A DNA stretch of 64,000 bases. Source: Eledone cirrhosa. Its lineage: Eukaryota. The stretch is taken from assembly GCA_964016885.1 (NCBI GenBank), contig OZ024740.1, positions 102,176,001 to 102,240,000 of the forward strand. Direction: 5' to 3'. This document shows, piece after piece, positions 10,501-57,200 of this stretch. Within the stretch, counting starts at the first letter, position 1. Every line of letters starts with the position of its first letter. The translations under genes and the position numbers were made by a program. Under the pieces are notes generated by a model that searched no databases, was not told the origin of the DNA, and saw only the letters and a program-made list of their open reading frames with translations.

Positions 10501-10562
10501 TACTATATATATATATAGTATATATATATATAGTATATAGTGTATATATATATATATATATA

Positions 10563-18750: not shown

Positions 18751-18773
18751 AATTATTATTATTGTTGTTATTA

Positions 18774-19069
18774 CTCTTTGAGTCTCAGTCATTGATGTTA
18801 GTTAACTGGAAAGTTTGTTGAAATGAATATCAAGCCACTACCTGCAGCCTCAGATATTCAGGACGTATCGGAGGGTTTTGCTGTTCCCAGCAAGCATGCC
18901 TTTTGAAGCATTCCAAAAAGCGTGAAGGGGCCAATTTTCTTTAACCATCCCTGGAAACTTTTTGAGATAGTCCCTAGTGCGCCTATGACAATCGGGATCA
19001 CTTTGACTTCATAGCAGTTCCAAATCCTTTTTACGGATCAATTTGACTTCATGGCAGTTCCAAATCCTT
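18774..19069 (-). mobile_element. 3' fragment of R4/Dong-like restriction-endonuclease non-LTR retrotransposon
   Basis: Minus strand encodes IWNCYEVKVIPIVIGALGTISKSFQGWLKKIG...LQKACLLGTAKPLRYVLNI*; flanked on both sides by (TTA)n. Confidence 0.75.
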
Positions 19070-20787
19070 ATTATTATTATAATTATTATTATTATTATTA
19101 TTATTATTATAAATCAGGGTTTGAGAAATATATGAAGATTGTTGCATTGCATGTCTGTCTACTGCTAATGATTAAACTAATCTAAAGAGATATGTTCCAT
19201 ATGCAATAATGAATATATATTGTCTCTGAGTGTCTGTAAATGTGAGAGAGAGTATATGTATGTTTGTATATGTAGATAGAAAATACAAATATGTGTTTTT
19301 ATTTCAATATGAAGGTACAACCCACGCAACTGCTTTTTCTATTCAGATTAATCTATATTTGCATGTATGTGTGCATGTGTGCTTGCATATGTGTATATAT
19401 ATATCATCATCATCATCGTTTAACGTCCATTTTCCGCGCTAGCATCGGTTAGACGGGTTGTCCCATTTGAAGCAATTTGGGTTAGGTGACCATGTCTTTG
19501 TTCTCGGTATGGTGAACTAACTGTTGCACTACTACTTATATATATACACACACACACAGGGTGCTTCAACAAATCAGATATCATTTGAAATATCCCCAAA
19601 ACTACAAAATCTAGTACAATGGGACTGAACTGGTTTAATGTTGACCAACATAAGATTTATTCTTCAACATTTTGACACAATATATATACTTATTAGTATT
19701 GTTATTAATATTACTATTATTATCCCTAGGTTAATTCTGATCAAGTAGATATATACCCAATAGGCATTCCAGCCACGATCATATCTATTTTATTTTTCTT
19801 CAAATACAGTACAGTAACCTATTTGATAACAAACTGCCTGAAACTACTCTTGATTTTACAATGTATAACTGTTTGTTTTAAAATATTTACTTTCATGTAA
19901 AACCCTTTCATCATGATTTTGTATAAGAACCTTTGTTCTAAACACCATATAAATATTGGTTTCTGATTTAGGCACAAGGCCAACAATTTTCGGGAAAGGG
20001 AAAGTCAATTAAATCTACCTCACTGCATTACTGATACTTTATTTTATCAACCCCCATAAATATGAAAGGCAAATTTGAACTCAGAACATAAAGGCACATA
20101 ACTATATGCTGCAAATAAATAATGGGAAAATTAATTATATTACTAAATCCCTTCAAATTCTTGATTATTTAAAAATTATATGCAGTATTTTTCATTATAA
20201 ATATGGTAACAAAAGGATTAAAGATTACATTATTCAATGACTTTTTGTAAGACTATAAAGTTGTGATTTCATTGCTGCTGTTGAACCCAAGGTCAGCCCC
20301 GATCAAACAAACCTATCACCAAAACATTCCAGCCATGACTGTCTCATCATTTTGAATACCATTGTCGAATGTTTTTCCATTTTCAAGAAAGTACAGTGTA
20401 TGATGTAAGGGGGGTTTGGCTGTTATTTCTAGGAGGATTAGCAAACACATACAGGTTCCCTTATTGGCTTGCAATTGAATTCATCTCATAGTAGAAGATA
20501 TTGTTGTTGAGCCCTAGATCTTCATTGACCAAACAAACCTATAATCCGGGGGGGGGGGCAAGCATGACCATCTCAACATTTTTTTATATATGAGAGTACA
20601 TTGTTCCAATGTGTTCTTTATTTTAGATATTGGTAGAATGACATTTCTATTTTTAGCAGGTTATGTGAGCACAGACAGGCTTTCTTAGCTCAAGGAATAG
20701 TATTAGTAGTAGCAGCAGCAGTAGTTGTAGTAACAGCAGCAAAAATAGTATATTAAGAATGCACCACGTGAAACCTTAAATCGATCT

Positions 20788-21008
<221 letters not shown>

Positions 21009-21009
<1 letters not shown>

Positions 21010-21329
21010 GGAGGCACATGGCTTAGTGGTTAGAGCATTGGCCTTGCAGTCAAAAGGTTGTGAGTTCGATTCTCAGACCGGGTGGTGTGTTGTTTCTTGA
21101 GCAAGACACTTTATTTCACATTGCTCCAGTTTACTCAGCTGTAGAAATGAGATGCATTCCACTGCAAAGCGGTCGTGTAGGTGCCACGGCAAAAAAGCAC
21201 ACAGCACTCTCTGTAAATGAGGTTGGTGTTAGGAAGTGCATCCAGCTGTAGAAATCAAGCCAGAATCAATTCCCGTCCCACCCTTGCAAGCAGGGAAAAG
21301 CGGACGTAAAATGAAATGATGATGATGAT
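21009..21329 (+). mobile_element. tRNA/CORE SINE type A (internal deletion)
   Basis: Matches 10563-10915; flanked by (TA)n. Confidence 0.88.
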
Positions 21330-21343
21330 ATATACATATATAC

Positions 21344-21374
<31 letters not shown>

Positions 21375-21393
21375 CATATATATATATATATGC

Positions 21394-21448
<55 letters not shown>

Positions 21449-21476
21449 TATGTATATATATATATATATGCATATG

Positions 21477-21512
<36 letters not shown>

Positions 21513-21533
21513 ATATATATATAATATAGATGA

Positions 21534-21582
21534 GATTCTACAGGACTAGAACTGTTTCATTCTTTAGAAATCACCAGGAATC
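21534..21582 (-). ncRNA. Hammerhead ribozyme motif with mutated core (CUGGUGA) inside a 48-bp-arm hairpin
   Basis: Minus: GATTC CTGGTGA TTTCTAAAGAAT GAAA CAG TTCTAGTC CTG TA GAATC. Hairpin spans 21524-21630. Confidence 0.65.
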
Positions 21583-21695
21583 ATTTCTAAAGAATGAAAC
21601 TGTTCTAGTCCTGTAGAATCTCATCTATATCAAAACTTTTAGACTCTGTTTACGGTGGTTACCTCCGATTCAACCCGGAATAACGTATATATATA

Positions 21696-22031
21696 TCATC
21701 ATCATTTCATTTTACGTCTGCTTTTTCCCTGCTTGCAAGGGTGGGACGGGAACTGATTCTGGCTTGATTTCTACAGCTGGATGCCCTTCCTAACACCAAC
21801 CTCATTTACAGTGACTGCTGGGTGCTTTTTTGCTGTGGCACCTCCACGACCACTTTGCAGTGGAATGATAGGGACCCTAGTCCCTATCATCTCATTTCTA
21901 CAGCTGAGTAAACTGGAGCAATGGGAAATAAAGTGTCTTGCTCAAGGAAACAACACATCACCCGGTCTGAGAATTGAACTCACAACCTTTAGATTGCAAG
22001 GCCAATGCTCTAACCACTAAGCCATGTGCCT

Positions 22032-22034
<3 letters not shown>
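21696..22034 (-). mobile_element. tRNA/CORE SINE type A
   Basis: Tail-to-tail with 21009-21329. Confidence 0.88.
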
Positions 22035-22104
<70 letters not shown>

Positions 22105-22134
22105 TATGTATATATATATGTATATATATATATG

Positions 22135-22185
<51 letters not shown>

Positions 22186-22250
22186 GTATATATATATATG
22201 TATATATATATATATGTATATATATATGTGTATAAATATATGTGTATATA

Positions 22251-22291
<41 letters not shown>

Positions 22292-22296
22292 ATAAT

Positions 22297-26474
<4,178 letters not shown>

Positions 26475-26486
26475 ACATATATATAC

Positions 26487-26523
<37 letters not shown>

Positions 26524-26722
26524 CATATATAGATAAATCTACCAAAATGTACGGTAGTGTCCAATCCGTATGAAGAACTCAATGTAATCCGAATATCATG
26601 AAAAGAGAAGATGTATTCAACAAATTTTTTAGATGAAAAATACAGGAAAACAGAGGCAAGATAAATTAATAAAAATAATGAATAAAAACAAAGAAACAGT
26701 TCCTTATATTAAAAAAATCATC

Positions 26723-26850
26723 ATTTTACGATCGTTTCTAGGATATATATGTTAGTGTTGGTATGTATATCATATAGATCTTTGTAAAATTTTTACAAAG
26801 TATCAGAGGGAATATACATACCTACACATATGTATGCTCTCTTCAGAAAT
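26723..26850 (-). ncRNA. Hammerhead ribozyme (type I, long stem II, palindromic stem III)
   Basis: Minus: ATTT CTGAAGA [~100-nt fold-back] GAAA CGATCG TA AAAT; GUA triplet. Confidence 0.7.
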
Positions 26851-26853
26851 AAT

Positions 26854-27049
26854 TGTTTCTATTTTAGGCACAAGGCCAGCAATTATCCAGTACATTACTG
26901 GTACTTTATTTTATCGACCTCGTAAGGATGAAAGGCAAAGTTAACCTCGGCAGGATTTGAACTCAGATCGTAAAGGGACGTAACTATTCTGGAAAGCATG
27001 GCGTCCGACCCTCTACCGATACTGCCAATTCACCGCCCTTTCACCGCTG
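26854..27049 (-). mobile_element. Nin/Deu-domain-like SINE with 14-bp target-site duplication
   Basis: TSD TCTTCAGAAATAAT at 26840-26853 and 27050-27063; near-identical copy at 27397-27582. Confidence 0.8.
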
Positions 27050-27336
27050 TCTTCAGAAATAATGATATTTGTTTATTGAAAAAAATCAACAAAGATTTAA
27101 TATAATAGGTCTGCTTGGGAACAGGTTTTGAATTGACCAATAGAAAGGTAGTGAAAGGTCAAGATGGTAAAATAGTAGTAATAGAGCTTTAATTTAGGAG
27201 TAGAGGAAGGTAGATTTCAGTTTTGGATGGAAAGATTATGATGAATGAAAGATTATTTTAGGGATGAAAATAGGTCATATGGGGTCTTCAGAAATAATTA
27301 TATTTGTTTATTGAAAAAAACCAACAATATATATAT

Positions 27337-27397
<61 letters not shown>

Positions 27398-27636
27398 ATT
27401 GTTTCTACTTTAGGCACAAGGCCAGCAATTACCCAGTGCATTACTAGTACTTTATTTTATCGACCCCGTAAGGATGAAAGGCAAAGTCAACCTCGGCGGG
27501 ATTTGAACTCAGATCGTAAAGGGACGTAACTATGCTGGAAAGCATGGCGTCCGACCCTCTACCGATACTGCCAATCCACCGTTTATACACCGTATATACA
27601 TATATATATATATAATAAATATACATATATATAATA

Positions 27637-29252
27637 ACAGTAGAAGTACCTAGCTAAAAGTAAACCCCTATACTTAGCTTTTGTTGACTTGGAGAGAGCC
27701 TTTGACAGAGTACCCCGCTCGATTATCTGGTGGGCCCTTAGAAAACTAGGTGTTGATGAATGGCTTGTGAGAGCTATACAAGCCATGTATAAAGAAACAG
27801 ACAGCAAGGTTAGAATTAACAACGAATATAGTGAAGAGTTTAGCGTAAAAGTTGGTGTTCATCAGGGCTCCGTCCTTAGCCCCCTACTATTTATTATTGC
27901 CCTTCAGGCTATAACAGAGGAGTTCAAGACCGGCTGCCCATGGGAACTCCTATATGCAGATGATCTAACGCTCATAGCTGAATCAATGGCTGAACTAGAG
28001 AAGAAATTCCAAACATGGAAGCATGGCCTAGAATCAAAAGGCCTTAAAGTTAACTTGTCTAAGATTAAAGTTCTAGTTTGTAGGAAGGAAAATAGGGCAC
28101 CAGTCCCATCTGGGAAATGGCCATGCTCAGTGTGTAGGAAAGGAGTAGGTAGAAACTCCATTTTATGTCCCAAATGCAAAGTATGGGTACATAAAAGATG
28201 TAGTGGGATCACAGGTAAACTATCTAAGAATATAGATTTAATATGTGGCCAGTGCTCTGGTGCAATAAGTAGCAGCAAGTGCCCACACAATACTAACTCA
28301 GCTTCCGTTACCTGGGTGATAAAATCAGCAGTGGGGGAGGGTGCTCTGAAAGTACAGTAGCTAGGGTCAGAACGGGATGGAAAAAGTTCAGAGAGCTTAT
28401 ACCACTATTGGCCGCTAAAGGGTTCTCTCTAAAAATGAAGGGCAGGCTGTATGATGCCTGCATAAGAACAGCAATGTTACATGGCAGTGAGACCTGGGCA
28501 TTGTGTGCAGAGGATATACGCAGACTGGAGAGAAACAAAGCTTGCATACTCCGCTGGATGTGTAATAGTAACATACGTGAACGGCAAAGCATAAACGTAC
28601 TAAGGGAGAAATTAGAAATAAGAGGGATCAGATGTTGTTTACTCGAGAGAAGACTACGTGGGTATGGTGACGTGATGCGCATAAAAGACGACAGCTGTAT
28701 AAAAAAGTGCAGGGCAATAAAAATAGACGGTAGCCACGGAGTAGGCAGACCCAGAAAAACCTGGGACGACTTGATAAATTCCGACCTCACACACTTACAC
28801 CTCTCCAAGGCAATGTCACTGGACCAAGAGCTTTGGCGCTACACAGTAATAGAGAAGACCCGCCTTACCTAAGTACAAAGTGAAACCTACTACAGTCAGT
28901 AGGCACCTCTAACAAAATACACCCTGTCCCACTGCCCCCACTCCATCCACACCACCCCTTCAATGTAAAGTTATGTTGGTGTCACAACATCCAGCCCGAA
29001 ACAAATGAGGTCGTGTAGGTGTCATGACAAAAAAACACACAGTCCACGCTGTAATGTGGCCGTGTAGGCAACACGGTAAAAACCTCCCAGTTCCACACTG
29101 TAAATGTGGTTGGTGTTAGGAAGGGCATCCAGCCGTAGAAAACCCGCCAGACAGTCCTATGCGAGCAAGACAACCACTCTTGTCTCAAGTGGGAAAACCC
29201 CCGTCCAAACCCATGCAAGCGTGGAATATGGAAGTTAAACGATGATGATGAT
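27637..29252 (+). mobile_element. 5'-truncated RTE LINE (copy 4), frameshifted
   Basis: 37-bp deletion at ~28299 relative to copy 2 splits ORFs 27689-28360 and 28408-28872; TA-rich flanks. Confidence 0.93.
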
Positions 29253-32077: not shown

Positions 32078-33190
32078 TATAGAATAGAAAGAACTAGGAA
32101 CAAGGCCAATAGAGTAAACTCATGGTATGATAGCAATAAATACCAGAGTGTAATATTCATCAATACAACCCCTAGAGGCGAACTAGCCTACAAATTTAGA
32201 AGGGCCCTAAATAAACATAATCTCAATATTAAGATAGTAGAAAGACCTGGTACCTCCGTAAAAACACTTATTAGCAAGACATACCCGTTCCAAAGACCCT
32301 CATGTATAGATAAGAAATGTATAACCTGTAAAATAAGCCCCCATATTAACTGTAAAACTAGAAATGTAGTGTATAGCATAAGATGTACTGAAGGACAATG
32401 TAGAAACAAAAATATAGTGTACATAGGTGAGACAGCTCGTAGTATAGGGGAACGAATAAATGAACACTGGCGAGACCTCCAAGATAATAAAGAATCATCT
32501 GTGCTCTACCAACATGCTAAGATAGAACACAGGGGTAGATTAGAGAGCATAGAAATAAAAATAGAATCCACGCACAGAAAAGACGCAATGTTTAGGCAAA
32601 TTACAGAGGCAGTAAGCATAAAAGAATTAAAACCAAAATTAAATAGAAAATATGAGTGGAACAGCAACATCACAACTTACAATTAAGGACAAAATGAAAA
32701 CACACACACACATAGAACAAACAACTTACAATTGAAAACACACACAAAAGGAAAACACACACAGGACAAAATGAAAACACACACACACATAGAACAAACA
32801 ACCAACCAACAATAAATAAATAAACAAATAGAAAAATGAACACAAACACACACAGACACCCGGATGTGGCACATGCGCAAACTGAGCACACAACACACAC
32901 ACAGAAACAAAATGGCGTAGGATAAAAGAAAGAAAAGGCACAGAAACGAAGAAAGGAATCCCCAGTCACTGAAGAGGTCACAGAGTGTGTGACGAAAGGA
33001 CTATGACTATATATATAAACAACTATCTGGTTGTGGAACCAACCAACCAACCAGAAATTTATAAGTTTGTAAATTTGTAAATTTATAAATTTATAAATAT
33101 ATAATAAATTGAAGTGAAAGCAACTGGTGCGTGTGTTTCTTATTGGCAACATGACCCTCCCAAAGTATAACAATATCGGTTTCAACACAC
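32078..33190 (+). mobile_element. 5'-truncated Penelope-like element (Neptune-like), GIY-YIG C-terminus plus terminal region
   Basis: ORF to 32686: IKIVERPGT, Cys linker CxxxxCxxC...C, NVVYSIRC...YIGETARSIGERINEH, HAKIEH, RQITEAVSI...PKLNRKYEW; hammerhead downstream. Confidence 0.88.
32964..33008 (+). ncRNA. Minimal hammerhead ribozyme of PLE terminal repeat
   Basis: AGTCA CTGAAGA G GTCAC AGAGTGT GTGAC GAAA GGAC TA TGACT; CUA triplet, predicted cut after 33003. Confidence 0.82.
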
Positions 33191-33703
33191 GATTTCAGAT
33201 AAAGAATCTTGCTAAACAAATTCAGAAACAAAATATTTTTGTATATTTACAAGTAAGCATTCAATGTTATTAAAACATGGATCTCAACCTCACATGAAAG
33301 ACTTGAATGATATTATATGAGCCTTAAGTGTGCCCTATAAACCACCAGGTACAATATTTCATACACATACCCTCCAAGAGAGCAAAACCAAAGGTGATCC
33401 CTGGCACTAATTCGAGATACCAGAACAATATAAATGTATTATAAACAACTTGAATATTTCTACAAGTACATTGTACCTGTTGAAGTATCCATCCACTTCT
33501 ATAATTATTCTCCTTATGTAGAGAACAAAACGTTGAATAATGCTGCTAATTTTAGTGGCAGTCCGACATGTTTATAATATCCAGCTTTTATCAGCGACCT
33601 GATTATGCGTGTGTGTCATTTTAACGGCTTGACCGCATGCGTTGGGCAGGGAGCATAATATTTACTTGCTATTAGGCTTGATACCTTATGGCGTGGAAAT
33701 AGG

Positions 33704-33784
33704 GCTGTCTGAAGATTCATTTCTTTCCATTGGAAATTCGTTGGATTTTCAATCTTTCGGAATGATGAAACCCTCGGTAACAGC
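33704..33784 (+). ncRNA. Hammerhead ribozyme in pLTR-like direct/inverted repeat unit
   Basis: GCTGT CTGAAGA [stem II] GAAA CC CTC GG TA ACAGC; GUA triplet, predicted cut after 33779. Confidence 0.8.
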
Positions 33785-34739
33785 GTCTGAACAGGTGATT
33801 ATTTAATCATTTTTTAATTTATTTAGAAAATTGTTTAATAACCGCTTGCTTCGCTACTTTTATATTGTTCTGGTATCTCGAATTAGTGCCATTGAACCAC
33901 ATGTATTATAAACAACTTGAATATTTCTACAAGTACATTGTACCTGTTGAAGTATCCATCCACTTCTATATATATATATATATATATGGTGGCTGCCAAC
34001 TCGTTTTCGAGTACGGCCACTACTTTATATCCATGTAGGAGAACCCCTACCGATGCGCTGAACGAGTGTGGCTTTTTAGTACAGACAGCGACTTGAAAAC
34101 TCTGGTACAAACACTATACTTGTGACAATTATTGGCACATAGTGCTGGGCCCATGGTATCATGTGACGACAAGTGCAGAGAGATCTCCCGATATAAAGCA
34201 ATGCCTGTGCCGTGAAGCTTTTATAGTGAGCAAAGGCACTGCACAAAGCCAGTCCCACTCTCTTAACCAAGATGATATTTACCAAAAAGAAGAATAAGTC
34301 AACATCATTGGATACCATCAGGGTTGCAGGTGTTATATCAGAGTTTTCCTTCTCCTAGAATTCTGCCTTGACATATATATATATATCCATACATACACAT
34401 ACACATAAATACACAAACACACACACACATATATATATATATATACACACATATATATATATATATATATACACACATACATACACACATATATACATGC
34501 ATACATACGCACACACATATATAGATATATATATACCTACATACGCACACACATATAATTATAAGAATAAATAAAAATCATTGAACAACCATATAATGCA
34601 ATAGGCTGTCACATACAAATAAAAAAATAAAAAATAAGAATTAAGAAGATAAAAATTATTATTAAGTTGACAGCGATACAGAAAGGACACAAATAAAAAT
34701 AAATAAACAAACACACGTGGTAAGCAAATGCGCAAGATG

Positions 34740-34784
<45 letters not shown>

Positions 34785-34918
34785 GAGGTTATATTTAATT
34801 TGTTGGGTTTCAACAAGCTTAAACATTTTTTAGAACTGATATTTATAACTATCCAGGAAGCTCCAACCGTCTTTTTTCAGGGTATGTCAATATTTATTTA
34901 TAAAACTAATCTGTATTG

Positions 34919-34984
34919 TATTTTATCTGATGAAAGCGCACCATAATTTGCCTTGGTGGCCCTTGAAATATGTATAATAAAATA
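34919..34984 (+). ncRNA. Minimal hammerhead ribozyme
   Basis: TATTTTAT CTGATGA AAGCGCACCA..TGGTGGCCCTT GAAA TATGTA TA ATAAAATA; perfect 8-bp stem I, AUA triplet. Confidence 0.8.
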
Positions 34985-35585
34985 AATATGGTTTTATAAA
35001 TATAGTTTCCATTTGTTAATATATTGTATATATATATATATATGTGTGTATATATATACAGGCATACACATCCACATACATATATACACATACACACAAG
35101 AATACACACACCTAAATATATACAGTACAAACATATACACATAAAAGTGTATAGATACAAATACATATACACGCACACATAAATACATACATGTATATAT
35201 ATACATATACATATACACATATACACACATACATATATACATATACATACACACACATACATATAAAAAACATACACACATATATAAATCATATTCATAC
35301 ACATTGATACGCATGCATATACTCACAATCACACAAATAGGAACATAAATATAAATGTAGGTGAATATACATAATCGAAAAACATATAAAAACATTCACG
35401 TACACATATGCATGAGAAAAATTACATACAACCACATACACACATATAATTATAAAAAATTGAAAACCTATATATAAAGATATACATACATACACACATA
35501 CGCATAAGTACGTACACATACATACATACGCACATATATACATATATATACATATATATATACACAAATACACACATATACACAT

Positions 35586-35872: not shown

Positions 35873-37185
35873 TCAAGGTGGTTGAGTCATCGTAGGAATG
35901 TCAATCCAGTTACAGAGCAGATGTGATTTTAGGTGAGGACAACATCTGAAGATCTCGGTCTTGGAGTTCAGGCAAGTTGAAGTGGCTTTCAAATTTTGTA
36001 GAATTCTAAATTTTTCAGTGGTATACAAAGAACAATTCTTTGTGCCTCTTTGGTATTCCCTCGAATGGTCTAAAATAGACCAATCGATAGAGTACGGGAT
36101 ATTTTTATCTTTGAATTCCCACACCTTATTTGCGAGAGCCGTTGCTGTTCTTTTATCAGAGTGTTTAAAAGAAGCGACATGTGCATAAAACCTGGTTTTG
36201 AACTTGTCCTGAGTCATGCCAACATATCGTTCACTCCTTGCTGGCTGGCTGGTTGTCACTTTGGCCTCATATACAACGGATTTGGTATTACATTTGCCCT
36301 GTAATGGGCATTTATCCGGCTTCCTGCAACTGCATCCTGAATTTATTCTCGTACGATTAGAGTTGGTGATTTTAGACTTCATTGATGGGTAGCAAGAGTA
36401 ACTGATTTTAACTACTTTTCTATTAAATATCTTATAATATCTATGAATAGGGGGAAATGTTTGTCTAAGAGGTCAAGGAATTTCCTTCCTACATTAGTTT
36501 TGACAGTTAGAGAGAAGGGGGTGTAAACCAAATAATTTTCCTTTTCCTATTATTGTGGTTAGTTTTAGGGGGAGGAGTAGGTAAATATTTAATATGTTCT
36601 GTAAAGCCGCTGTTATTGAGGGCTTTATTTTAATAAGGGGCGGCTTTGTTAAAAATGTCTAGAGACGAAGATAAGGTAGAAATCCTACGGCTAATATTGG
36701 GGATACGATTTTTAAAAACTATAGGGGGATGGCAAGACTCTTTGTGTATATATCTTAGATTTTCGTTAGGTTTATGATAAGGTTTAAAAGAGGTAGTAAG
36801 TAGATCAAGATTAATGTCAAGAAAGTTAGCATTGGTAAGGTTCGTATCTATAGAAATTTTAAGGTTTAGGTTAGCAAAAGTATTGATTAAATCTTTACGG
36901 AATTTATCAAGGTTATGGCCGTTGGTGGTATGAGAAACTGCCAATCCGTCGTCACGGTATAAACCGATATTATGGGAAGGACATTTCTTTTTAAGGGTGT
37001 GGAGAAGGAATAATCCTACTAAGTCACACACATCCGCACTGTCATATGAACCCATTGCAACATCAAAAGAGTTTTCAGGGCTTGACTTTTTAACCCAAAT
37101 ACTTTCATTAGTAAAGAGTAGAGTTTTCCTAGCATGAAAGATAATGTCTTCTTCTAATTTAGAAATATTAATGAAAGGTCTTGCA
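35873..37185 (-). pseudogene. Second, divergent Penelope-like element: frameshifted RT-thumb-GIY-YIG
   Basis: RT MGSYDSADVCDLVG, GLYRDDGL, NFLDINLDL, ESCHPP; linker KIIWFTPPF...DKHF; EN CSCRKPDKCPLQGKC..VVYEAKV...YVGMT..FKTRFYAH, EK..I, LN...CPH. Confidence 0.85.
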
Positions 37186-37257
37186 TCACCATACCGAGAA
37201 CAATTGTTTCACCTTAGCGGATCCGCTAAGGTGAAACAATTGTTCTCGGTATGGTGA
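37186..37257. repeat. Perfect 72-bp palindrome at the PLE 5' truncation
   Basis: TCACCATACCGAGAACAATTGTTTCACCTTAGCGGA|TCCGCTAAGGTGAAACAATTGTTCTCGGTATGGTGA. Confidence 0.92.
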
Positions 37258-40795: not shown

Positions 40796-40836
<41 letters not shown>

Positions 40837-40919
40837 GGAGGTGAGTTTTATTGTAGTACAATAAAGCAATGCAGATATCGGATAAGAAGCACTCTACAGT
40901 TTGTAGGACTAGAGTATAC

Positions 40920-41263
40920 ATAATATATAAGATCAAAAGATGGTTAAATGAGTTCCATGTATTTTATTATGCGCATTTCAAAAACAAATATCATCATGCA
41001 ATAACATTTGTGTTTTCATCAGATAAAATATGAGGACATGATATGAAGGTTAAAAACACTTGTGGATAGTGCAGTTTTAAATCAACATATCTATATGTTG
41101 ATTTAAAACTGCACTATCCACAAGTGTTTTTAACCTTCATATCATGTCCTCATATTTTATCTGATGAAAACACAAATGTTATTGCATGATGATATTTGTT
41201 TTTGAAATGCGCATAATAAAATACATGGAACTCATTTAACCATCTTTTGATCTTATATATTAT
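40920..41263. repeat. 344-bp palindrome (171-bp arms, 2-nt loop)
   Basis: Arms read as exact reverse complements about CT at 41091-41092. Confidence 0.93.
41153..41223 (+). ncRNA. Minimal hammerhead ribozyme (mirror copy on minus strand at 40960-41030)
   Basis: TATTTTAT CTGATGA AAACACAAATG...TATTTGTTTTT GAAA TGCGCA TA ATAAAATA; palindromic stem III. Confidence 0.82.
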
Positions 41264-41398
41264 ATATATATATATATTTATATAACGGCTCTGTTCTTGT
41301 ACATTGCGCTAATACAATACTGTCATAATAAAACACTGTGCATGTGCGTTTATGCATATATGCTCCGTGCTATACGTAAATAAATATATATATATATA

Positions 41399-41502
41399 TA
41401 TTGTTATACTTTGGGAGGTCATGTTGCCAATAAGAAACACACGCACCAGTTGCTTTCACTTCAATTTATTATATATTTATAAATTTATAAATTTCTGGTT
41501 GG
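41399..41502 (-). mobile_element. Solo terminal fragment of the Neptune-like PLE
   Basis: Reverse complement of ~33047-33175 (GAAGTGAAAGCAACTGGTGCGTGTGTTTCTTATTGGCAACATGACC...). Confidence 0.85.
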
Positions 41503-41725
41503 AACGAGTAGGACCCCGACGGTTGTAATTCTGGACTAAAAAAAAAAATTTTTTTTTTTAGTCCAGAATTAGCCGTCGAAACGGCTTGAGCTCAGCCGCC
41601 GGGGTCCTACTCGTTCCTATTACCCACTCTACTACCCTAAGTATTGAGTACTTTGGTGCTTTATGGTCCACCTGGTTCCTTACCACATTTCCTCCGTTAT
41701 ATATATATATATATATATATATAAT

Positions 41726-41761: not shown

Positions 41762-41973
41762 ATCCTTACACACTTAAATTTAAATGCATGTATATATATA
41801 TGCAAATGTATAAATGCATAGCTATATACATACGTAAATGTATGTATGTAGATTTATATATATATATAAATCTATATACATACATATATACATACATACA
41901 TTTACGTATGTATATAGCTATGCATTTATACATTTGTATATATACATGTATTTATATTTAAGTGTGTAAGGAT
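41762..41973. repeat. Imperfect AT-rich inverted repeat (~90-bp arms)
   Basis: ATCCTTACACACTTAAAT... pairs with ...ATTTAAGTGTGTAAGGAT; inner AAATGTATAAATGCATAGCTATATACATACGTAAATG mirrored. Confidence 0.8.
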
Positions 41974-43324: not shown

Positions 43325-43676
43325 TCATCACCACTGTTTTACGTCCGTTCTTCCATGCTAGCATGGGTTAGACAGGTTGTCCTGTTGTGGGCAGTGTCTG
43401 GTTGGCTGACCTTGTCTTGCTCATATGGGAACTGATTCTGGCTTGATTTCTACAGCTGGATGCCCTTCCTAACACCAACCTCATTTACAGTGAGTGCTGG
43501 GTACTTTTTTGCCGTTTCACTTCCACGACCACTTTGCAGTGGAATGATAGGGACCCCAGTCCTATCATCTCATTTCTACAGTAAACTGGAGCAATGTGAA
43601 ATAAAGTGTCTTGCTCAAGGAAACAACACATCACCCGGTCGGAGAATTGAACTCACAACCTTTAAGCCATGTGCCT
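43325..43676 (-). mobile_element. tRNA/CORE SINE type A variant (longer RTE tail, deleted head)
   Basis: Family match; a head-only fragment on + at 43935-44040. Confidence 0.82.
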
Positions 43677-43797
43677 ATATATATTTATATATATATATAT
43701 ATATATAATGTGTGTGTGTGTGTGTGTGTGTGTGTGCCTATATATATATATAGTGACGAAACATAAGTCAATTGCATGAACTCATAATCCTTTATTT

Positions 43798-43853
43798 ACT
43801 GCTATATATATTTCGATGATAGCCATTGAATGGCTATGACCTCATCAGGCAGT
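43798..43853 (-). ncRNA. Minimal hammerhead ribozyme
   Basis: Minus: ACTGC CTGATGA GGTC ATAGCCA TTCAA TGGCTAT CATC GAAA TATATA TA GCAGT. Confidence 0.8.
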
Positions 43854-44033
43854 TAGTCTGTTCTTAGATATGCCAGCTCTGTGTGTATAGTGTTGATGGT
43901 ATCAGAGCCTTGGTGTATAGTGTTGATGGTATATAGGCACATGGCTTAATGGTTAGAGCATTGGGATTGCAATCGAAAGGTTGTGAGTTCAATTTCCCGA
44001 CCGGGTGATGTGTTGTTTCCTTGAGCAAGACAC

Positions 44034-44067
<34 letters not shown>

Positions 44068-45233
44068 ATCATCTTCGTTTAACATCTATCTTCCACGCTA
44101 GCATGGGTTAGAATGGGAGTTGTCCCACTTGAGGCAAGGTTGGTCGGGTCACCGTGTCTCGTTCATATAGGACTATCTGGCAGGTTTTCTATGGCTGGAT
44201 ACCCTTCCTAACACCAACCACATTTATAGTGTGGAACTGGGAACTTTTTACTGTGTTACCTACACGGCCACATTACAGCATGGACTGTGTGTGTGTGTTT
44301 TTTTTTTGTCGTGACACCTACACAATCTCGATCTCATTATCTCATTTATTTGGACTGGATGTTGTGGTACCAACTTACAGAGAGAGGGTGGTGTTGGTGG
44401 GAGTGGGAGGATAGGGTAGGAGTAGTGGATTGGGGTGTATATTAGGTTACGAGGTGCCTACTGACTGTAGGTTTCGCTTTGTATATAGGCAAAGCGGGTC
44501 TTCTGTATTACTGCATAGCGCCAAAGATCTCAATCCCATGACATTGTCTTCGAGAGGTGCAAGTATGTAAGGTCAGAATTTATCAAATCGTCCCAGGTTA
44601 CTCCATAACTACCATCAATTTTGATCACCCTGCACTGTCGTCTTTCATGCGCATCACGTGACCATACCAACATAGTCTTCTCTTGAGTAAACAGCATCTG
44701 ATCCCTCTTATTCCTAATTTCTCACTTAGTTCATTTATGCTTTGCCGTTCACGTATATTACTATTACACATCCAATGCAGCATGCATGCTTCGTTCCTTT
44801 CCAGTCTGCGCAGGTCCTCGGCACACAATGCCCATGTCTCACTGCTATGTAGCATTGCTGTTCATATACAGGCATCATACAATCTGCCTTTCATTTTTAG
44901 AGAGAAACCTTTTGTGGCCAACAGCGGTATAAGCTCTCTGAACTTTTTCCATCCCGACCTGACTCTGGCTACTGTACTTTCAGAGCACCCTCCACCACTG
45001 CTGATTTTGTCACCCAGGTAACAGAAAGTGTCCACTATTTCTACAGAACCATGTGGGCAATAGAAGGAGCTAGTATCCTGTGGGCACTTGCTACTTATTG
45101 CACCTGAGCATCGGCCACATATAAAATTTACGTTCTTAGATAGTTTCCCTGTGATCCCACTACACCTTTTATGCACCCATAGTTTGCATTTGGGACATAA
45201 AATGGAATTTCTGCCTACTCCTTTCCTACACAC
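44068..45233 (-). mobile_element. Older 5'-truncated RTE LINE (copy 5)
   Basis: [24 protein letters not shown]...; more diverged, deletions near the C-terminus; TA-rich flanks. Confidence 0.9.
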
Positions 45234-45959
45234 GGTTATTTCCCATATATATATATATATACTAATATATGCATATATATATATCATCATCATCATCACT
45301 GTTTAAGATAAATTTTTTCATGCCAGTATGGGTTAGACAAGTTATCCTGTTGTGAGCAATACCAGGTCAGGTAACCATGTCTTGCTCATACAGAACCGAT
45401 TTTAGCTTGGTTTCTATAGCTGGATGCCCTTCCTAGTGCCAACCTCATTTACAGTGAGTATTGGGTGCTTTTTGTCATGACATATTAGAATTAAACCATT
45501 ATTCAACAGGGTACTTGATACTTGGAATAGTAGAGTGTGATATATATATACATATATGTATTTATATATATACATATTTATATGTATATATGTACGTATG
45601 TATGTGTATATATGATAGATACTGATGACACAAAAAAGACAAGATATAAACAGTTAAAACATAAGAGTTTAAAACGGAGTAAACAAAAAGTGAAAAATGA
45701 CACATGCTTGACAAAATATAGACATAAAATATGAACATATATACAGATACATATCCCTCTTTTCTCCCGGTCCCTACTCCCTCTTTCTCCCCATGAGTTC
45801 ATATCACCACTTAGTTTGTTACGCACACACCCACCCTCCCTCGTTTTTTTTTTTTCTATTTCTCTTTCTACTTGGCATAAATATTTCCACTGTACATATA
45901 TTGTTTATATTTTTGTGCATATATTTGTTTGTATACACCTCTCTCTCTCTGTATATATA

Positions 45960-47014: not shown

Positions 47015-47019
<5 letters not shown>

Positions 47020-47490
47020 AATGACTGATAAGTTTCACAAAGTTGGTACAATGCGGTAGAAATATATAAAGAGCAAAGGATAACAAATAAAACAAAAGAA
47101 AGTAATCTTTTACCCAGTATATTTCATCATGATATTTCAGGGCTATTAACATCTTTTCAAATGTGAAATGGAAACAGTTCAAAACAAAAATAATCGATCA
47201 ATGTGTTCTTCCTTAACTGGTCTACGTGTCTGAAATACGCATGTGTGAAGTCATTATAGTAACCAATCTTTTTTGTACATTTCCAATCTATAACAACTTC
47301 ATACATGTTTATTTCAGACATGTAGTCCAGTTTCTGTTTCACATTTGAAAAGAGGGGTATTAGTCCAGAAATATCATGATGAAATATATTGAGTAAAACA
47401 TTACTTTGTTTAGTTTTATTTGTCATTCATTGCCCTTTATATATTTCTATTATATTGTACCAGCTTTTTTAAACTTATCGTTCATTTATT
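47015..47490. repeat. Diverged inverted repeat (~160-bp arms)
   Basis: TATATTTCATCATGATATTTC and TCTTTTCAAATGTGAAA mirrored at ~47336-47388. Confidence 0.75.
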
Positions 47491-47590
47491 ACATATCTCA
47501 CAATGCTTTGTATTAACTGTTTATGTATATATATATATATTATAAACAAAATCAACTCAAAATTGAGTTTTGAGACACGAGTGCATTAAA

Positions 47591-48004
47591 ATTCGTAGGA
47601 AAGTGGAAAAACTGGGTGTAAGGAAGCTGTTAAAACAGCAAAATGCTGTGAAGGATAGAAATCAGCAGCTAGAAGTGAGTTGGCATGAAGAATTGATAGG
47701 AAGAAAGGAATAAAATGGATGAGAGGAGATCACATACATTTAAATACATTTATCAGCTTTCAGATCACCTGCAGTTTCGATGATTGTTGAAATTGTAGGC
47801 AGTCTGAAAACTGATAAGTGTATTTAAAAGTTTGTGATCTACTCTCATCCATTTTATTCCTTTCTTCCTATCAATTCTTCATGCCAACTCACTTCTAGCT
47901 GCTAATTTCTATCCTTCAAGGTAATGCTTTACCCAATGCCACTTCGACGGCATTTTGCTGTTTTAACAGCTTCTTTATGCTGAGTTTCCCATTTTCCTAC
48001 GAAT
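47591..48004. repeat. ~410-bp fold-back palindrome with ~29-bp indel in right arm
   Basis: AGCAGCTAGAAGTGAGTTGGCATGAAGAATTGATAGGAAGAAAGGAATAAAATGGATGAGAG mirrored exactly at ~47843-47903. Confidence 0.88.
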
Positions 48005-48334
48005 ATAAATATATAAAGCACATCATACACACACACTCACACATATATGCACCATGCTAGTGCAGCATGTCACCAAATATTTTGATAATTTAATAAATTC
48101 AAATAAAATAGATTAAAGTAAAATGAGATATGCATGTGTTTGGAATTCTGCATTCATGAATGTGTCTCAATTAATGGGTTCCCACCTGAGAATGCATACA
48201 TACATATACACAAATTTGCATATGTGCACAACATAGATATGTATATATGCATACACACACATACACATACTTCTTTACTTACAAATATGTAGGCACATCC
48301 TACTGACTACAGAACATATCTACCAGTTCACCCT

Positions 48335-48904: not shown

Positions 48905-48950
<46 letters not shown>

Positions 48951-49106
48951 GATAACAAAATATCGTTATAAGTAATCCAGTTAGAGATTGTGAATACTTT
49001 GTATTGTGGATAGCTTTAGCATACAGCGTTGTTTGACTCAACAAGAGTTTTCCGTAGGTGGCGAGTTTATGAGTTCTCTTGAATTCCTATGCAAGTTTAT
49101 CTTACA

Positions 49107-49162
49107 TTGTTAGCTTAACCAGATCATCAGAAGGACTTCTGATGATCTGGTTAAGCTAACAA
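49107..49162. repeat. Perfect hairpin, 27-bp arms, GA loop
   Basis: TTGTTAGCTTAACCAGATCATCAGAAG GA CTTCTGATGATCTGGTTAAGCTAACAA. Confidence 0.9.
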
Positions 49163-49280
49163 CGTATTTAAAATTGAGTGGCACAGCTTCCAGTGTTCAG
49201 CAATCTTTAGACAACTTAATCAGTGAAACAATTGTTAATAGTGTAAATAAAACCCTTTTTTGTACTGTTGACCATTCTTT

Positions 49281-49384
<104 letters not shown>

Positions 49385-51365: not shown

Positions 51366-51485
51366 TTTTGAAATTATAGGTACAGTCTGATAGGCCTCTT
51401 ATTTTCATTTGTCCAATTTCACTCATAACACTCTGGTATAGAGGAAGCTATGATAAAAGTAAAGGGAACCTTTTTCAGATTTCAT

Positions 51486-53222
51486 TAAGTGGGGTCAAAC
51501 CCCAGCTTTCATGATTGGGAAGTGAATCTCATGAAGTGGGATCAAACCCCAGCTTTCATGATTGGGAAGTGAATCTCATGAAGTGGGATCAAACCCCAGC
51601 TTTCATGATTGAGAAGTGAATCTCATGAAGTGGGATCAAACCCCAGCTTTCATGATTGAGAAGTGAATCTCATGAAGTGGGATCAAACCCCAGCTTTCAT
51701 GATTGGGAAGTGAATTTCATGAAGTGGGATCAAACCCCAGCTTTCATGATTGAGAAGTGAATCTCATGAAGTGGGATCAAACCCCAGCTTTCATGATTGA
51801 GAAGTGAATCTCATGAAGCAGGATCAAACCCCAGCTTTCATGATTGAGAAGTGAATCTCATGAAGTGGGATCAAACCCCAGCTTTCATGATTGAGAAGTG
51901 AATCTCATGAAGCAGGATCAAACCCCAGCTTTCATGATTGAGAAGTGAATCTCATGAAGCAGGATCAAACCCCAGCTTTCATGATTGAGAAGTGAATCTC
52001 ATGAAGTGGGATCAAACCCCAGCTTTCATGATTGAGAAGTGAATCTCATGAAGCAGGATCAAACCCCAGCTTTCATGATTGAGAAGTGAATTTCATGAAG
52101 TGGGATCAAACCCCAGCTTTCATGATTGGGAAGTGAATTTCATGAAGCAGGATCAAACCCCAGCTTTCATGATTGAGAAGTGAATCTCATGAAGTGGGAT
52201 CAAACCCCAGCTTTCATGATTGAGAAGTGAATCTCATGAAGTGGGATCAAACCCCAGCTTTCATGATTGAGAAGTGAATCTCATGAAGCAGGATCAAACC
52301 CCAGCTTTCATGATTGAGAAGTGAATTTCATGAAGTGGGATCAAACCCCAGCTTTCATGATTGAGAAGTGAATCTCATGAAGTGGGATCAAACCCCAGCT
52401 TTCATGATTGAGAAGTGAATCTCATGAAGCAGGATCAAACCCCAGCTTTCATGATTGAGAAGTGAATTTCATGAAGTGGGATCAAACCCCAGCTTTCATG
52501 ATTGAGAAGTGAATCTCATGAAGCAGGATCAAACCCCAGCTTTCATGATTGAGAAGTGAATCTCATGAAGTGGGATCAAACCCCAGCTTTCATGATTGAG
52601 AAGTGAATCTCATGAAGCAGGATCAAACCCCAGCTTTCATGATTGAGAAGTGAATTTCATGAAGTGGGATCAAACCCCAGCTTTCATGATTGAGAAGTGA
52701 ATCTCATGAAGCAGGATCAAACCCCAGCTTTCATGATTGAGAAGTGAATCTCATGAAGTGGGATCAAACCCCAGCTTTCATGATTGAGAAGTGAATTTCA
52801 TGAAGTGGGATCAAACCCCAGCTTTCATGATTGAGAAGTGAATCTCATGAAGCAGGATCAAACCCCAGCTTTCATGATTGAGAAGTGAATCTCATGAAGT
52901 GGGATCAAACCCCAGCTTTCATGATTGAGAAGTGAATCTCATGAAGCAGGATCAAACCCCAGCTTTCATGATTGAGAAGTGAATCTCATGAAGCAGGATC
53001 AAACCCCAGCTTCCATGATTGAGAAGTGAATCTCATGAAGTGGGATCAAACCCCAGCTTTCATGATTGAGAAGTGAATCTCATGAAGCGGGATCAAACCC
53101 CAGCTTTCATGATTGAGAAGTGAATCTCATGAAGTGGGATCAAACCACAGCTTTCATGATTGAGAAGTGAATCTCATGAAGCAGGATCAAACCCCAGCTT
53201 TCATGATTGGGAAGTGAATTTC
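51486..53222. repeat. 47-bp minisatellite, 37 units
   Basis: Unit GTGGGATCAAACCCCAGCTTTCATGATTGAGAAGTGAATCTCATGAA; three recurrent variable sites, no spacers. Confidence 0.97.
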
Positions 53223-54236
53223 TCAATTACATGCCCATGCCAGCATGCTTTTAAAAAAGAAATTTTGTAAACAGATGGAATATAATAAACCGAATCAGAG
53301 ATCAACTTTCGTCTGGAACAACAATATTGTAATTATATCATCAAGACTACCACTACAACAGTTATTGCTGTAATATCCTCTTTGTAAATTATGTATGAAG
53401 TTAATTACATTCAAGTGGACAATAGTGAAATGTAAATTAGTTATACAATATTTGGTGTTGTTATTGTTGCTGTGTATTTTCTTGTGAAATTATTCATCAG
53501 ATAAGCTCAGTGATTAACTAATTAATACAAACAGCTGTTTCCAAATGTTTCACATTAAGAATATATACACACATGATCAGATATGTGTATGATTATATTT
53601 TAGTTTCTTAATGTATATAGGTATATGTACGATTATGTGTATGTGTGCTTGTGTGTGTATGCATGTGCGCTTGTGTGTATATGTGTGTTTGTGCATGTGT
53701 GTGGTGTGTTCTTCTAGATTTATTATTCAAATTTCTTGAGTATCAGTTTCTAACCCAGGAATGAAATTTTTTCCACTGAGATTTTGATATCAACTAGATA
53801 GTTGTGTGTGTGTGTGTGTGTGTAGGGAGAGAAAAAGAGAGAGAGCAAGCTAACAAGCATGGATATTCTTGCATGTTTGGATCTGAAGGTATATCTCATT
53901 TCTATATACATATACATATCATCATCATCATTTAACGTCTATCTTCCATGCTAGCATGGGTTTATATATATTTGTTGACTGTTTCTGAGGTTTAAAGTGA
54001 AAGCTAATATACTTGTTGCAGGTCCAAAAATTGACTGCATTTGTCATCTATGTTATTGTCACTTTGAAGCTATCTAACAGCATAACCATGCATGATTTTC
54101 CACTAATAAGTATAGAATATTTCACCAAATGATATGTTGTAGCAGAACTTTGCTGGATCATCATTATCATCATTGTTGTCCTTTTTACATCTGTTTTTCC
54201 ATGCTTGCATGTATTGGAAGGGTATTTTTCAGCACA

Positions 54237-54299
54237 TTCTTAATCATCAGTTAAGTATTCTTAATCATCAGTTAATGTATTCTTAATCATCAGTTAAGT
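54237..54299. repeat. 21-22-bp tandem repeat x3
   Basis: TTCTTAATCATCAGTTAA(T)GTA repeated. Confidence 0.9.
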
Positions 54300-57200
54300 G
54301 TAACTGCAAAAAAGAAAAAATTGTTGTTGGAAAATTTGGTGCATAGAATATATCTCGTCAAATCTGTTAAGTGGTTGTGCTGGTGCCACACAAAATGCAC
54401 CCAGTATACTCTCTAAAATTAGTCATTTTTTGTCAGAAAATTATAAAGGTGTGCACCCCAAAAAATAATAGGAGCAATATGCTTATGGATAGAGGCAGTG
54501 TATATAACTGTTAATACAGAATTTCTGGTACTGGTTAAATAGTTTGGGGGATTATAAGCCTTTTATCATATTCAATGGACATAAAAGATGATAATGTTGA
54601 TAATGATTTCTAATAAAAGTCACTGCCTATGATTTTGAAAATAATTATGAATTTGGAGGAATCGTGTTGGCGACATGACAAAAAGTGCCCAGCCCACACT
54701 GTAAAGTGGTCATATAGGTGTCAAGACTAAAAGCACACAGCACACACTGTAAATGTGGTTGGCGTTAGGAAGGGCATCCAGCCGTAGAAACCAAGCCCAA
54801 ATCAATTCTGTGTGAGCATAACATGGTCCTCCAACCTGATCTCTCACAACAGGACAGCTCGTCCTACCCATGCTAGCATAGAAAATGGATATTAAATGAT
54901 GATGATGATGATGATGATGATAGTAATACAACTAACTTTCTCATTATTAAACTGGTGTTTGGAGCATAATTTAAGTTTCTTTCATAAAATTACGAGGGAA
55001 GGTTATTTTTTATGAATATAAGCATTCTAAAAATCATCTGTATTGTAGAAAAAAGGGCAGTTTTGGGTGGTTTGCTATCAAAAGTTTAATATTAATGGCC
55101 TGGGTCTCATCTAACATTTGAGTACCCCAGATTTTGGTATGAGTATTGTTACATATTCTAGGCAACTCACTTATTATATCCTTTGAGAATGCTATAATTA
55201 GGTCATGGCTCTTCATACTATTCATATTCTAGGATTATTCAGAAAAAAGTTATATGTTAGCTTGGTGTTTCTGTCCTCTTGTGAGCCAACAAAAGAACAA
55301 GTGTATGGATAGCATAAATAACATCACAGCAAAACAGTTCATTTGAAAGGAATTGAATATTTATATAAATGTGTGCAGTTTTCTATATGTATGTGTTTAT
55401 TGTGTAGTTATGTAACTAGGTAGTTGTTTACCTTTACATCACTTATTGAGGTCTTTACTGAGTTAATGTTTTTATATTTATACATAAATAAAAACATCTA
55501 TATTAATACACATATATATATTTATATATATCATTTATCTTCTGATGAAGGAGTTACATCTGAAACATTATGACTCTTTTCCTACTATATCAATCGCTAA
55601 GCTAATATATATCTTTATTGTACCATATTGTTTCACTGTGTTGTTTATCTGTTTACTTTTCACACACACACAATATGTTAAATTATGTGATAGATTATGC
55701 CTACCACCCAGTAAGTATGCCACAGTGGAATTTGAACTTAAAATGTAAAAAGCCTGATGAAATATGGCAAAGTATCTCCTCTGATACTCTAACAATTCCA
55801 ACTAGCTGCTGATCTGAAGTGTCACTTTATTTTATCAACCCTCCAAAAACATTAACGATAAAGTTGACCTAAACAGGATTTGAACTTGTGGCACAGAGAA
55901 TTGGAACAAATATCACATGGTATTTTGTCATATGTTCTGCCAATTCTAAACACAAAAGAAAAATAAACAACAACAAAAAAATCTGTTCCAATATAAATCT
56001 TTCATACAAATAGTGTTTTCTGAATTATTCAACTCTGAATATAAATACAAACAAAAAAAATTAAAAAATAAATTAAATAAATTGCTTGTGCTCCAACATA
56101 GCCAAACCCAAATGAAATGGCTGAAATTAGTAAAAAAAAATAGTAAACGGATGAAAAATATTATTAATAGGTGGGGTGGAGGGGATAAACCTAATCGAAA
56201 GATAGAAGATTAAGTAGTTGTTGAAAGTAAATATGATCCTGATTTATTACATATGAGGACTTCCAATGATTGATCTTATCATGGGGCCATCAAAGGGAAT
56301 TGATAGAAATTCTATCATGTATATGATGTGTAGCCTACACAGCTCATGTATGCACAGATGCAATCACGTTTCCTATTTAACAGATGAAAATGTGCACCAA
56401 CACAGGAAATTTAATCCATATGGGTAGCAAAAATAAAATGATAAATAAATTAAAAAAAAGATGGTTGCCAGTAATGGTTCACTTGAAGTCGATGATAATT
56501 TCTGATACCTCGTTGTGATGACAACAGAGTTAATGATAGTGTAATGATTAGAGCTTCTGGTATCTGGATGAAATGAAGAAAAATTCTGCACTAGCTGACA
56601 AGCAATATAAGGAGCCATCTGGAAAACTGAAAGGCAGCAAGTGTACTTTATATAAGAAAGTTAAAAGAAGGGGAATAATGTGATGGTGGAATGAGAGTTA
56701 TGTGAGGAAGGAGAGGATATCTGAACGTGTGGATTATAAAAAGTGAACATTTGGAGTTATTTCTTATAGAAATAACCTGATAATTTGGAAGGCTTGAGCA
56801 TCTAAATGGATAGATTATTGAACTATCATATATGGGCACTGAATGCATATCTGCAGTCTAATGTTTTCTTGTGTTCTGGACAACATACTTTTCTATTTCA
56901 TTCAACTTGGTTCAATTCACCTACCTTTCTGGTGTAGATACCAAGTCTTCCTTAAATATTATCTTCAATATATTTGTATCTATGGACCTTTAATTCTCTC
57001 TGGAGTTGTAGGGGCCCTGTAGTGACATATGGTGTGTCTTGGATATTTCAAACCTAACAGAGCCCATCCACTCTCCAGATCTGAACACAACCAATTTCTT
57101 CCAGAGAAAGCAAGAAAGAATAATAGTCAGGAAGTAATAAAAAGAGACATAGAGAAAGAATTGACCTTGGGGGGATTTAAGTTCAGAGAGCACAGAGAAC

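Follow-up and report, generated by a model that had tools for sequence, protein, structure and literature searches.

We conclude that a perfect 344-bp palindrome in a 64-kb window (the whole stretch of DNA analysed here) is probably a recent and severely 5′-truncated insertion of a Penelope-like element (PLE) or a non-autonomous derivative of one, to whose 5′ end an inverted copy was joined by fold-back of the cDNA. The initial annotation had described 171-bp exact arms around a 2-nt loop, and an exhaustive scan of all centres, with loops of 0-30 nt, bore this out: the arms are identical at 171/171 positions and enclose a 2-nt centre, CT. When folded, the palindrome has a loop of 4 nt. Among complex perfect palindromes, the next longest in the window reach arm lengths of 36, 27, 23 and 18 bp, and the chance expectation of a 344-bp palindrome, calculated from composition, is about 1e-90. 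The 344-mer and its arm occur at one locus only within the 64 kb, with no second copy, and a search of plasmids and phages with the arm returned no match. The features of the palindrome are as follows.

40920-41090, minus strand: left arm, the exact reverse complement of the right arm; candidate 5′-truncated PLE-type 3′ end, facing outward
41093-41263, plus strand: right arm, the same 3′ end as the left arm, facing outward; 26% GC
41087-41096, no strand: symmetry centre ATATCTATAT, equal to (AT)5 with one difference at 41091; putative role in fold-back or annealing
41153-41223, plus strand: type I hammerhead motif, with stem I formed by 41153-41160 and 41216-41223 and the core CUGAUGA at 41161-41167
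41168-41214, plus strand, remainder of the same motif: stem-loop II at 41168-41203, GAAA at 41204-41207 and palindromic stem III at 41207-41214; predicted cleavage after 41215
40960-41030, minus strand: mirror hammerhead motif, core starting at 41022

Each arm was said to hold a complete hammerhead with a palindromic stem III, and descriptor matches at +41161 and −41022 confirmed this. The motif consists of an 8-bp stem I, a 36-nt stem-loop II, a UA cleavage site and a stem III formed by the 8-mer AUGCGCAU, itself a perfect palindrome; the type I order with CUGANGA, GAAA and the NUH triplet is present in full. A relaxed descriptor gave 6 matches at 5 loci in the window, compared with a mean of 0.11 (maximum 2) in 100 block-wise dinucleotide shuffles. 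Additionally, two-sided changes were seen in 8 of the 14 stem pairs across three hammerhead loci of the window, a count that is partly circular because the three loci were picked by a descriptor demanding stems I and II. The pair closing stem II is A-U in the arm motif, as opposed to the G10.1-C11.1 pair (position numbering as in PMC4209133) that is called highly conserved in hammerheads in that paper. Many Hydra-clade motifs in File S2 of PMC8557442 likewise depart at this place, and we would therefore expect the A-U pair to lower activity more than it lowers the identity of the motif as a hammerhead. No canonical contact between loop 1 and loop 2 was evident by eye. The folding energy of the motif is ordinary (z = −0.90; 35 of 200 shuffles as good). 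Rfam reported no hammerhead at gathering score in the whole window, neither in the arms nor at the other hammerhead loci, and the 50 matches of an E-value scan (E up to 10) included no hammerhead. The bacterial and archaeal genomes searched with the hammerhead pattern gave no match. A microRNA precursor, proposed by Rfam matches below gathering score, was considered and rejected, as these matches merely reflect the perfect hairpin.

The positions of the two motifs show that a transcript of either strand carries the antisense copy first and the ribozyme second, as the initial annotation had stated. That annotation further proposed that the ribozyme would be sequestered in read-through RNA, and the computed folds agree. 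In the single arm, stem I pairs have probabilities of 0.76-0.89 and the base of stem II 0.5, plus 0.26 when the register is shifted. Folded whole, the palindrome forms a single duplex of −272.6 kcal/mol, in which stem I is lost (pair probability about 1e-64, plus strand). Stem I is also lost in modelled transcripts starting at 41020 or upstream (1e-9 or less), is partly regained for starts at 41080-41091 (0.44-0.51) and takes values of 0.02-0.63 for intermediate starts. Sequestration thus requires the antisense of the ribozyme itself.

Stem III behaves differently from stem I in these calculations. As a monomer it forms 2 bp at most, at a cost of about 3 kcal/mol (−10.8 closed vs −13.7 open), whereas it pairs fully as a homodimer (cofold −42.1 vs 2 x −15.0; 8-bp self-duplex −10.5 kcal/mol). 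Because stem III does not close beyond 2 bp in the monomer, even a free arm should need a partner. Thus the predicted ribozyme probably needs a second copy as dimer partner, and by the same models a single arm would be expected to be nearly inactive without one. In PMC4209133, monomeric metazoan PLE hammerheads are reported not to cleave and dimeric ones to cleave at a low level.

Both hammerheads face outward, and beyond the cleavage site the palindrome continues for about 40-48 nt before it ends in AT-repeat DNA (48 nt to the arm end). The features of the ends and flanks are given here.

40834-40919, minus strand: unique 86-nt segment between the left arm and an upstream (TA)n run, without a repeat match in the window
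40923-40928, no strand: ATATAT, a possible 6-bp target-site duplication (left copy), for element arms of 162 bp
41255-41290, no strand: right (TA)n target tract, which opens with the possible right ATATAT copy at 41255-41260

The outermost 9 bp of each arm resemble an AT repeat and may belong to the target, which would leave element arms of about 162 bp. ATATAT reads the same on both strands and falls within AT-repeat DNA, so that the duplication is ambiguous. On the right, the palindrome adjoins (TA)n, as do 6.6% of sampled sites in the window; on the left it ends in a degenerate AT run, with the closest (TA)4 87 bp away. The 86-nt segment to the left may be flanking host DNA, an insertion of greater age or a 3′ extension of the element present on one side only. 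A reading of this segment as the 3′ half of another hammerhead found no support (9-bp match; 233 of 500 shuffles as good). No tail of 30-40 bp was found at the palindrome ends, the one-sided segment on the left being 86 nt. The two flanks are different and unique sequences. When 132 of the 185 filtered stop-to-stop frames of at least 55 aa outside 15400-29000 were compared with Pfam, one of the 132 gave a match, sub-cutoff and of low complexity, and thus no host gene was found. Likewise, there was no support for a promoter at the palindrome centre, with 2 initiator-like words observed against 1.9 expected and the TATA consensus absent.

The surrounding window is AT-rich animal DNA that is rich in (TA)n and holds two coding PLE fragments. 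One, at +32084-32683, matches GIY-YIG just below the cutoff (E 2e-4) and has a CX4CxxC linker of the Neptune/Nematis kind; in PMC8557442 this linker marks Neptune/Nematis, and CxCX5C marks the Hydra clade. A full HMMER scan with the GIY-YIG fragment returned 2714 relatives, of which 9 were checked by Pfam, giving one GIY-YIG and one RVT_1 below cutoff; no homologues were found among longer proteins. The fragment, with its GIY-YIG domain, belongs to a 5′-truncated Neptune/Nematis-type PLE at 32084-33175 (+), whose 3′ end contains a hammerhead at +32969. The last 100 bp of this PLE recur, identical at 97/98 positions, at 41402-41507 (−), 140 bp to the right of the palindrome, and end there at the same base in (TA)n. 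The second fragment, at 35873-37208 (−), is a 5′-truncated and broken Hydra-clade PLE with RT and GIY-YIG, a CxCX5C linker and a 3′ end without a hammerhead; compared by eye, it shares 30 of 41 residues with Hydra-1_Obim of Octopus bimaculoides and about 24 with a coral family, which makes an octopod host likely.

Further hammerheads were located at +33709, +34927 and −43848. The unit at +34919-34985, between (TA)n runs, is related to the palindrome arm (75 of 120 aligned columns; 0 of 500 shuffles as good), while the other two window hammerhead loci tested are unrelated to it (161 and 293 of 500 shuffles as good). Solo hammerhead-bearing units lie beside (TA)n at 34783-35030 (+), the closest relative of the arm, and at 43740-43870 (−). 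The region 33402-33970 combines the hammerhead at +33709, which has a long stem II, with 37-bp inverted ends (33402-33438 and 33855-33891); part of the sequence is also repeated directly (about 33430-33505 and 33900-33970). The layout is that of a compact pLTR with direct and inverted parts. At 54250-54300 (−) there are three tandem copies of 21-22 bp, each with CTGATGA but with no hammerhead half downstream. Neither of the two coding PLE fragments in the window gave a significant match to the arm (against 32900-33180, 161 of 500 shuffles were as good). With no link to an ORF in the window, the arm is not assigned to a named PLE family. Five short motifs from the window had no match in the PMC8557442 supplement, and a sixth, generic one matched only other families there; as far as those words show, the family of the palindrome would not be among the consensus sequences of that paper. 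Recently active PLE families number 31 in Octopus vulgaris, according to PMC13282606. Among the matches listed in a search of literature outside subscription journals, none beyond PMC8557442 dealt with octopus hammerheads.

The window contains other palindromes of the same make. Outward hammerhead parts occur in four of the five complex perfect palindromes, namely the 344-bp one, 37186-37257, 49107-49162 and 21554-21600, each with a probability by chance of about 0.01-0.08; for a 3′ half-motif, given the arm lengths, it is 0.02-0.08. The palindrome at 37186-37257 is perfect, 72 bp long and loop-free; its arms hold GAA, ACAATTGT and T, the 3′ half of a hammerhead, its centre falls where stem II would be, and the Hydra-clade fragment has its 5′ break at this palindrome. 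At 49107-49162, arms of 27 bp with CTGATGA lie within a unit (48950-49290) between two (TA)n runs, the palindrome sitting just 5′ of CTGATGA; its plus copy runs into a stem II of about 80 nt and then into the ACAATTGT stem III at 49225. At 21524-21630 a 107-bp palindrome has 48-bp arms with one mismatch, an 11-nt loop and the minus-strand core CTGGTGA. The half-motif scan found no hammerhead half there, and its assignment as a hammerhead rests on 39 of 44 identical positions with a degenerate hammerhead at +49800. The fifth perfect palindrome, 41526-41571, has no clear hammerhead, and the same is true of the diverged inverted repeats at 47016-47490, 47585-48010, 41762-41973 and 2941-3113. The presence of hammerhead-free palindromes indicates that other processes also make palindromes here.

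Several of the hammerhead-free structures have features of their own. The adjacent repeats at 47016-47490 and 47585-48010 are older palindromes of 475 and 426 bp beside (TA)n, with diverged arms that are identical in 174 of 251 and 163 of 209 aligned columns. Evidently, long palindromes form in this genome and survive there. The palindrome at 41526-41571 forms the inner part of a MITE-like unit (41505-41621) with 18-bp terminal inverted repeats, and is centred on A11T11-type runs; 41762-41973 is an AT-alternating foldback with 75-bp arms of 92% identity. For the 344-bp palindrome, a second copy, as would be expected of a MITE or foldback DNA transposon, was not found in the window, and its outward hammerheads point to a retroelement instead.

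These neighbours bear on two origins that would not involve PLE insertion. The first is a technical artefact, in which a fold-back amplification chimera or an assembly error doubled one real hammerhead arm. The absence of any mismatch between the arms would suit it, whole-genome amplification yields palindromic chimeras (10.1101/173872), and PMC8557442 describes complex PLE structures as hard for short-read assemblies. We nevertheless judge an artefact quite unlikely, as the duplication stops at the end of the element, orientation and content fit the biological PLE pattern and are repeated at three shorter loci, and the distinct, unique flanks together with diverged long palindromes that were made and kept in the same genome argue against an amplification chimera. 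The second is a fold-back during replication or repair, by which an existing solo PLE end would have been doubled, with the (AT)5 of the centre and the (TA)n of the flank as the sites of template switching. Both junctions do lie in AT-alternating sequence, and the hammerhead-free palindromes at 41526-41571 and 41762-41973 are close by. Such an event would leave the outward hammerhead parts in four of five perfect palindromes unexplained, and an old resident copy should be decayed, whereas the arm motif is intact; we regard it as most improbable. With its two coding PLE fragments, four further hammerhead loci and three smaller palindromes that carry outward hammerhead parts, the window suggests that the head-to-head palindrome stems from a recurrent process and is not a one-off or a sequencing artefact.

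The suggestion of the initial annotation that the palindrome is a recent PLE-type inverted duplication is supported by the outward orientation, the position of the hammerheads near the outer ends, the AT-repeat target, the PLE-rich neighbourhood and published precedent. Short palindromic stems III are a signature of PLE hammerheads in PMC4209133 and PMC6765202. In PMC8557442, hammerheads of Hydra-clade PLEs are placed about 100 nt from the 3′ end, (TA)n is a listed PLE target, and PLEs are said to be "often" accompanied by an inverted 5′-truncated copy at the 5′ end. According to PMC11167929, the PLE protein of Anolis cleaves both strands of AT-rich DNA, extends each of them and works with uncleaved RNA.

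We propose that a PLE RT/GIY-YIG protein would have nicked an AT-repeat target and primed reverse transcription near the 3′ end of its RNA, a step suggested by PLE biochemistry. The hammerhead of that RNA would have been uncleaved, since the motif is intact in each arm. Some 160-170 nt in, about 68 nt upstream of the core, the cDNA may have stalled at the (AT)5-like self-complementary stretch, folded back and copied itself, and the new cDNA end would then have been connected to the opposite side of the target inside the AT run. The native 4-bp hairpin at the centre has no stable fold when taken alone. In addition, twin priming gives nearly the same product, and for these two reasons the joining step is uncertain. 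A search of the literature outside subscription journals for Penelope elements with fold-back palindromes found nothing specific.

Twin priming shares the origin and the lack of function of the favoured reading and differs in the joining step: a dimeric PLE protein would have cut and extended both target strands, and two cDNAs made from the same RNA family would have annealed by their 3′ ends at the self-complementary (AT)5. In its favour, the Anolis PLE protein, a predicted dimer, acts on both strands by cleavage and extension (PMC11167929), the palindrome centre is one base from perfect, the centre of 37186-37257 is loop-free, and there is the possible ATATAT duplication. Independently made cDNAs would frequently be expected to differ in length or by a few bases, yet the arms are identical at 171/171 positions, and the CT/AG asymmetry is more simply a retained template loop; we consider twin priming unlikely. 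The two routes are indistinguishable from one locus. Because the arms are exact and several palindrome junctions fall in or beside hammerhead stems within one 64-kb window, a genome-wide map of palindrome centres could separate fold-back from twin priming.

A further proposal is that the 344-mer itself is the mobile unit, that is, a non-autonomous palindromic PLE derivative (or two head-to-head retrozyme-like monomers) copied whole, with a PLE 3′ end on either strand. The perfect symmetry and the older palindromes of 426 and 475 bp nearby are compatible with this, and the arm length is near the 150-450 bp of animal retrozyme monomers (PMC7229834), which derive from PLEs (bioRxiv 10.64898/2026.07.22.740005). 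The 64 kb hold only one copy of the 344-mer, and the older palindromes have no sequence match to it. An RNA duplex of 170 bp is a poor template and a target for Dicer and ADAR, textbook properties that count against the proposal. Retrozymes are, moreover, defined as head-to-tail tandems (PMC7229834; bioRxiv 10.64898/2026.07.22.740005). Taken together, we find a mobile 344-mer very unlikely and favour a single insertion with cDNA fold-back.

For this favoured origin, the palindrome is most likely a transposition by-product without a selected function, which will decay like the older palindromes nearby. The initial annotation also raised the idea of a functional "self-silencing ribozyme". This found no support: one arm without a second copy should hardly be active, and in the one PLE assayed in vitro (PMC11167929) insertion did not depend on hammerhead cleavage. 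As a substrate for siRNA production or ADAR, RNA of the palindrome would be plausible if such RNA exists, given the siRNAs from inverted Penelope copies in Drosophila (PMC3681739), and such loci, if transcribed, would be ready sources of dsRNA for siRNA and A-to-I editing. A more elaborate possibility, which we regard as very improbable, is that the palindrome is a mobile non-autonomous PLE derivative with a ribozyme switched by the transcription start. The read-through duplex would then silence the ribozyme and yield siRNA against its own family, while divergent RNAs from the AT centre would each carry a free hammerhead and could pair via stem III as an active dimer from a single locus. If true, such a start-site-switched palindrome would be a new way of controlling a dimeric ribozyme. 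The palindrome is likely ordinary PLE debris, and its modest value lies in a clean, recent record of the formation of an inverted junction; how PLEs make such junctions is listed in PMC8557442 as not yet understood.

Other repeats of the window were also recorded. A young LINE family has five copies (15522-18356, 22298-26401, 27637-28885 and 44635-45302), with an AP endonuclease and an RT with an inserted PHD finger. Two of the copies, 22298-24109 and 24596-26401, form a 1.8-kb inverted pair of 94% identity, a larger potential source of dsRNA than the palindrome. The LINE ORFs, with RT and PHD domains, are labelled RTE here; among the 120 matches listed in an RTE protein search, those named were Hydractinia, Branchiostoma, Mercenaria and one record labelled as bacterial. 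tRNA-derived SINE-like repeats at 10173-10892, 21012-22031 and 43601-44038 repeatedly form inverted pairs separated by (TA)n, and the two Rfam matches at gathering score in the window are both tRNA-like SINEs. A homogeneous 47-bp minisatellite occupies 51400-53300, with at least about 37 copies of 95-97% identity.

Several known systems resemble the palindrome in part. Dimeric type I hammerheads, PLE-associated or of the amphibian satellite/retrozyme type (PMC4209133, PMC7229834, PMC6765202), have a complete core, stems I and II and a short self-complementary stem III that pairs between two copies, as in the arms. They stand in direct tandem with two sense copies per transcript, whereas a transcript of the palindrome has one sense and one antisense copy and hence no partner in cis. 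Non-LTR retrozymes (PMC7229834; bioRxiv 10.64898/2026.07.22.740005) are, like the palindrome, short, non-coding, low in GC and PLE-related, with a type I hammerhead, but they are head-to-tail tandems giving circular RNAs and the palindrome is an inverted pair. Since the window holds only two inverted copies and no tandem, the palindrome is not a retrozyme. Rearranged copies of Penelope in transgenic Drosophila (PMC3681739) share long inverted repeats and potential dsRNA with it; there, transcription and siRNAs matching the inverted regions were demonstrated, while the palindrome is known from sequence alone.

A closer likeness in layout is found in Schistosoma mansoni, where paired minimal type I hammerheads on opposite strands, 100-700 bp apart, were ascribed to truncated PLEs (PMC4209133). 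The palindrome cores are similarly on opposite strands and 139 bp apart, although the arm motif differs from the Schistosoma motifs in its longer stem I (8 bp), long stem II and A-U closing pair. Inverted copies of EN+ PLEs (PMC8557442, PMC3846280) resemble it in the 5′ junction with a palindrome, the outward 3′ ends, the (TA)n target and a hammerhead shared by both strands. In Penelope-13_HM the same hammerhead is listed on strands 0 and 1, with an inverted part of 966 nt (PMC8557442, Files S1/S2). In the Pen families of Adineta vaga, palindromes are abundant at head-to-head junctions and were read as self-priming on an antisense template (PMC3846280). The cited examples keep an ORF-bearing body or have junction palindromes of 18 and 38 bp (A. 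vaga), whereas both copies are about 170 bp here and the palindrome is the whole insert. Thus the head-to-head arrangement of PLE ends has already been described, and the palindrome is most likely a by-product of PLE insertion.
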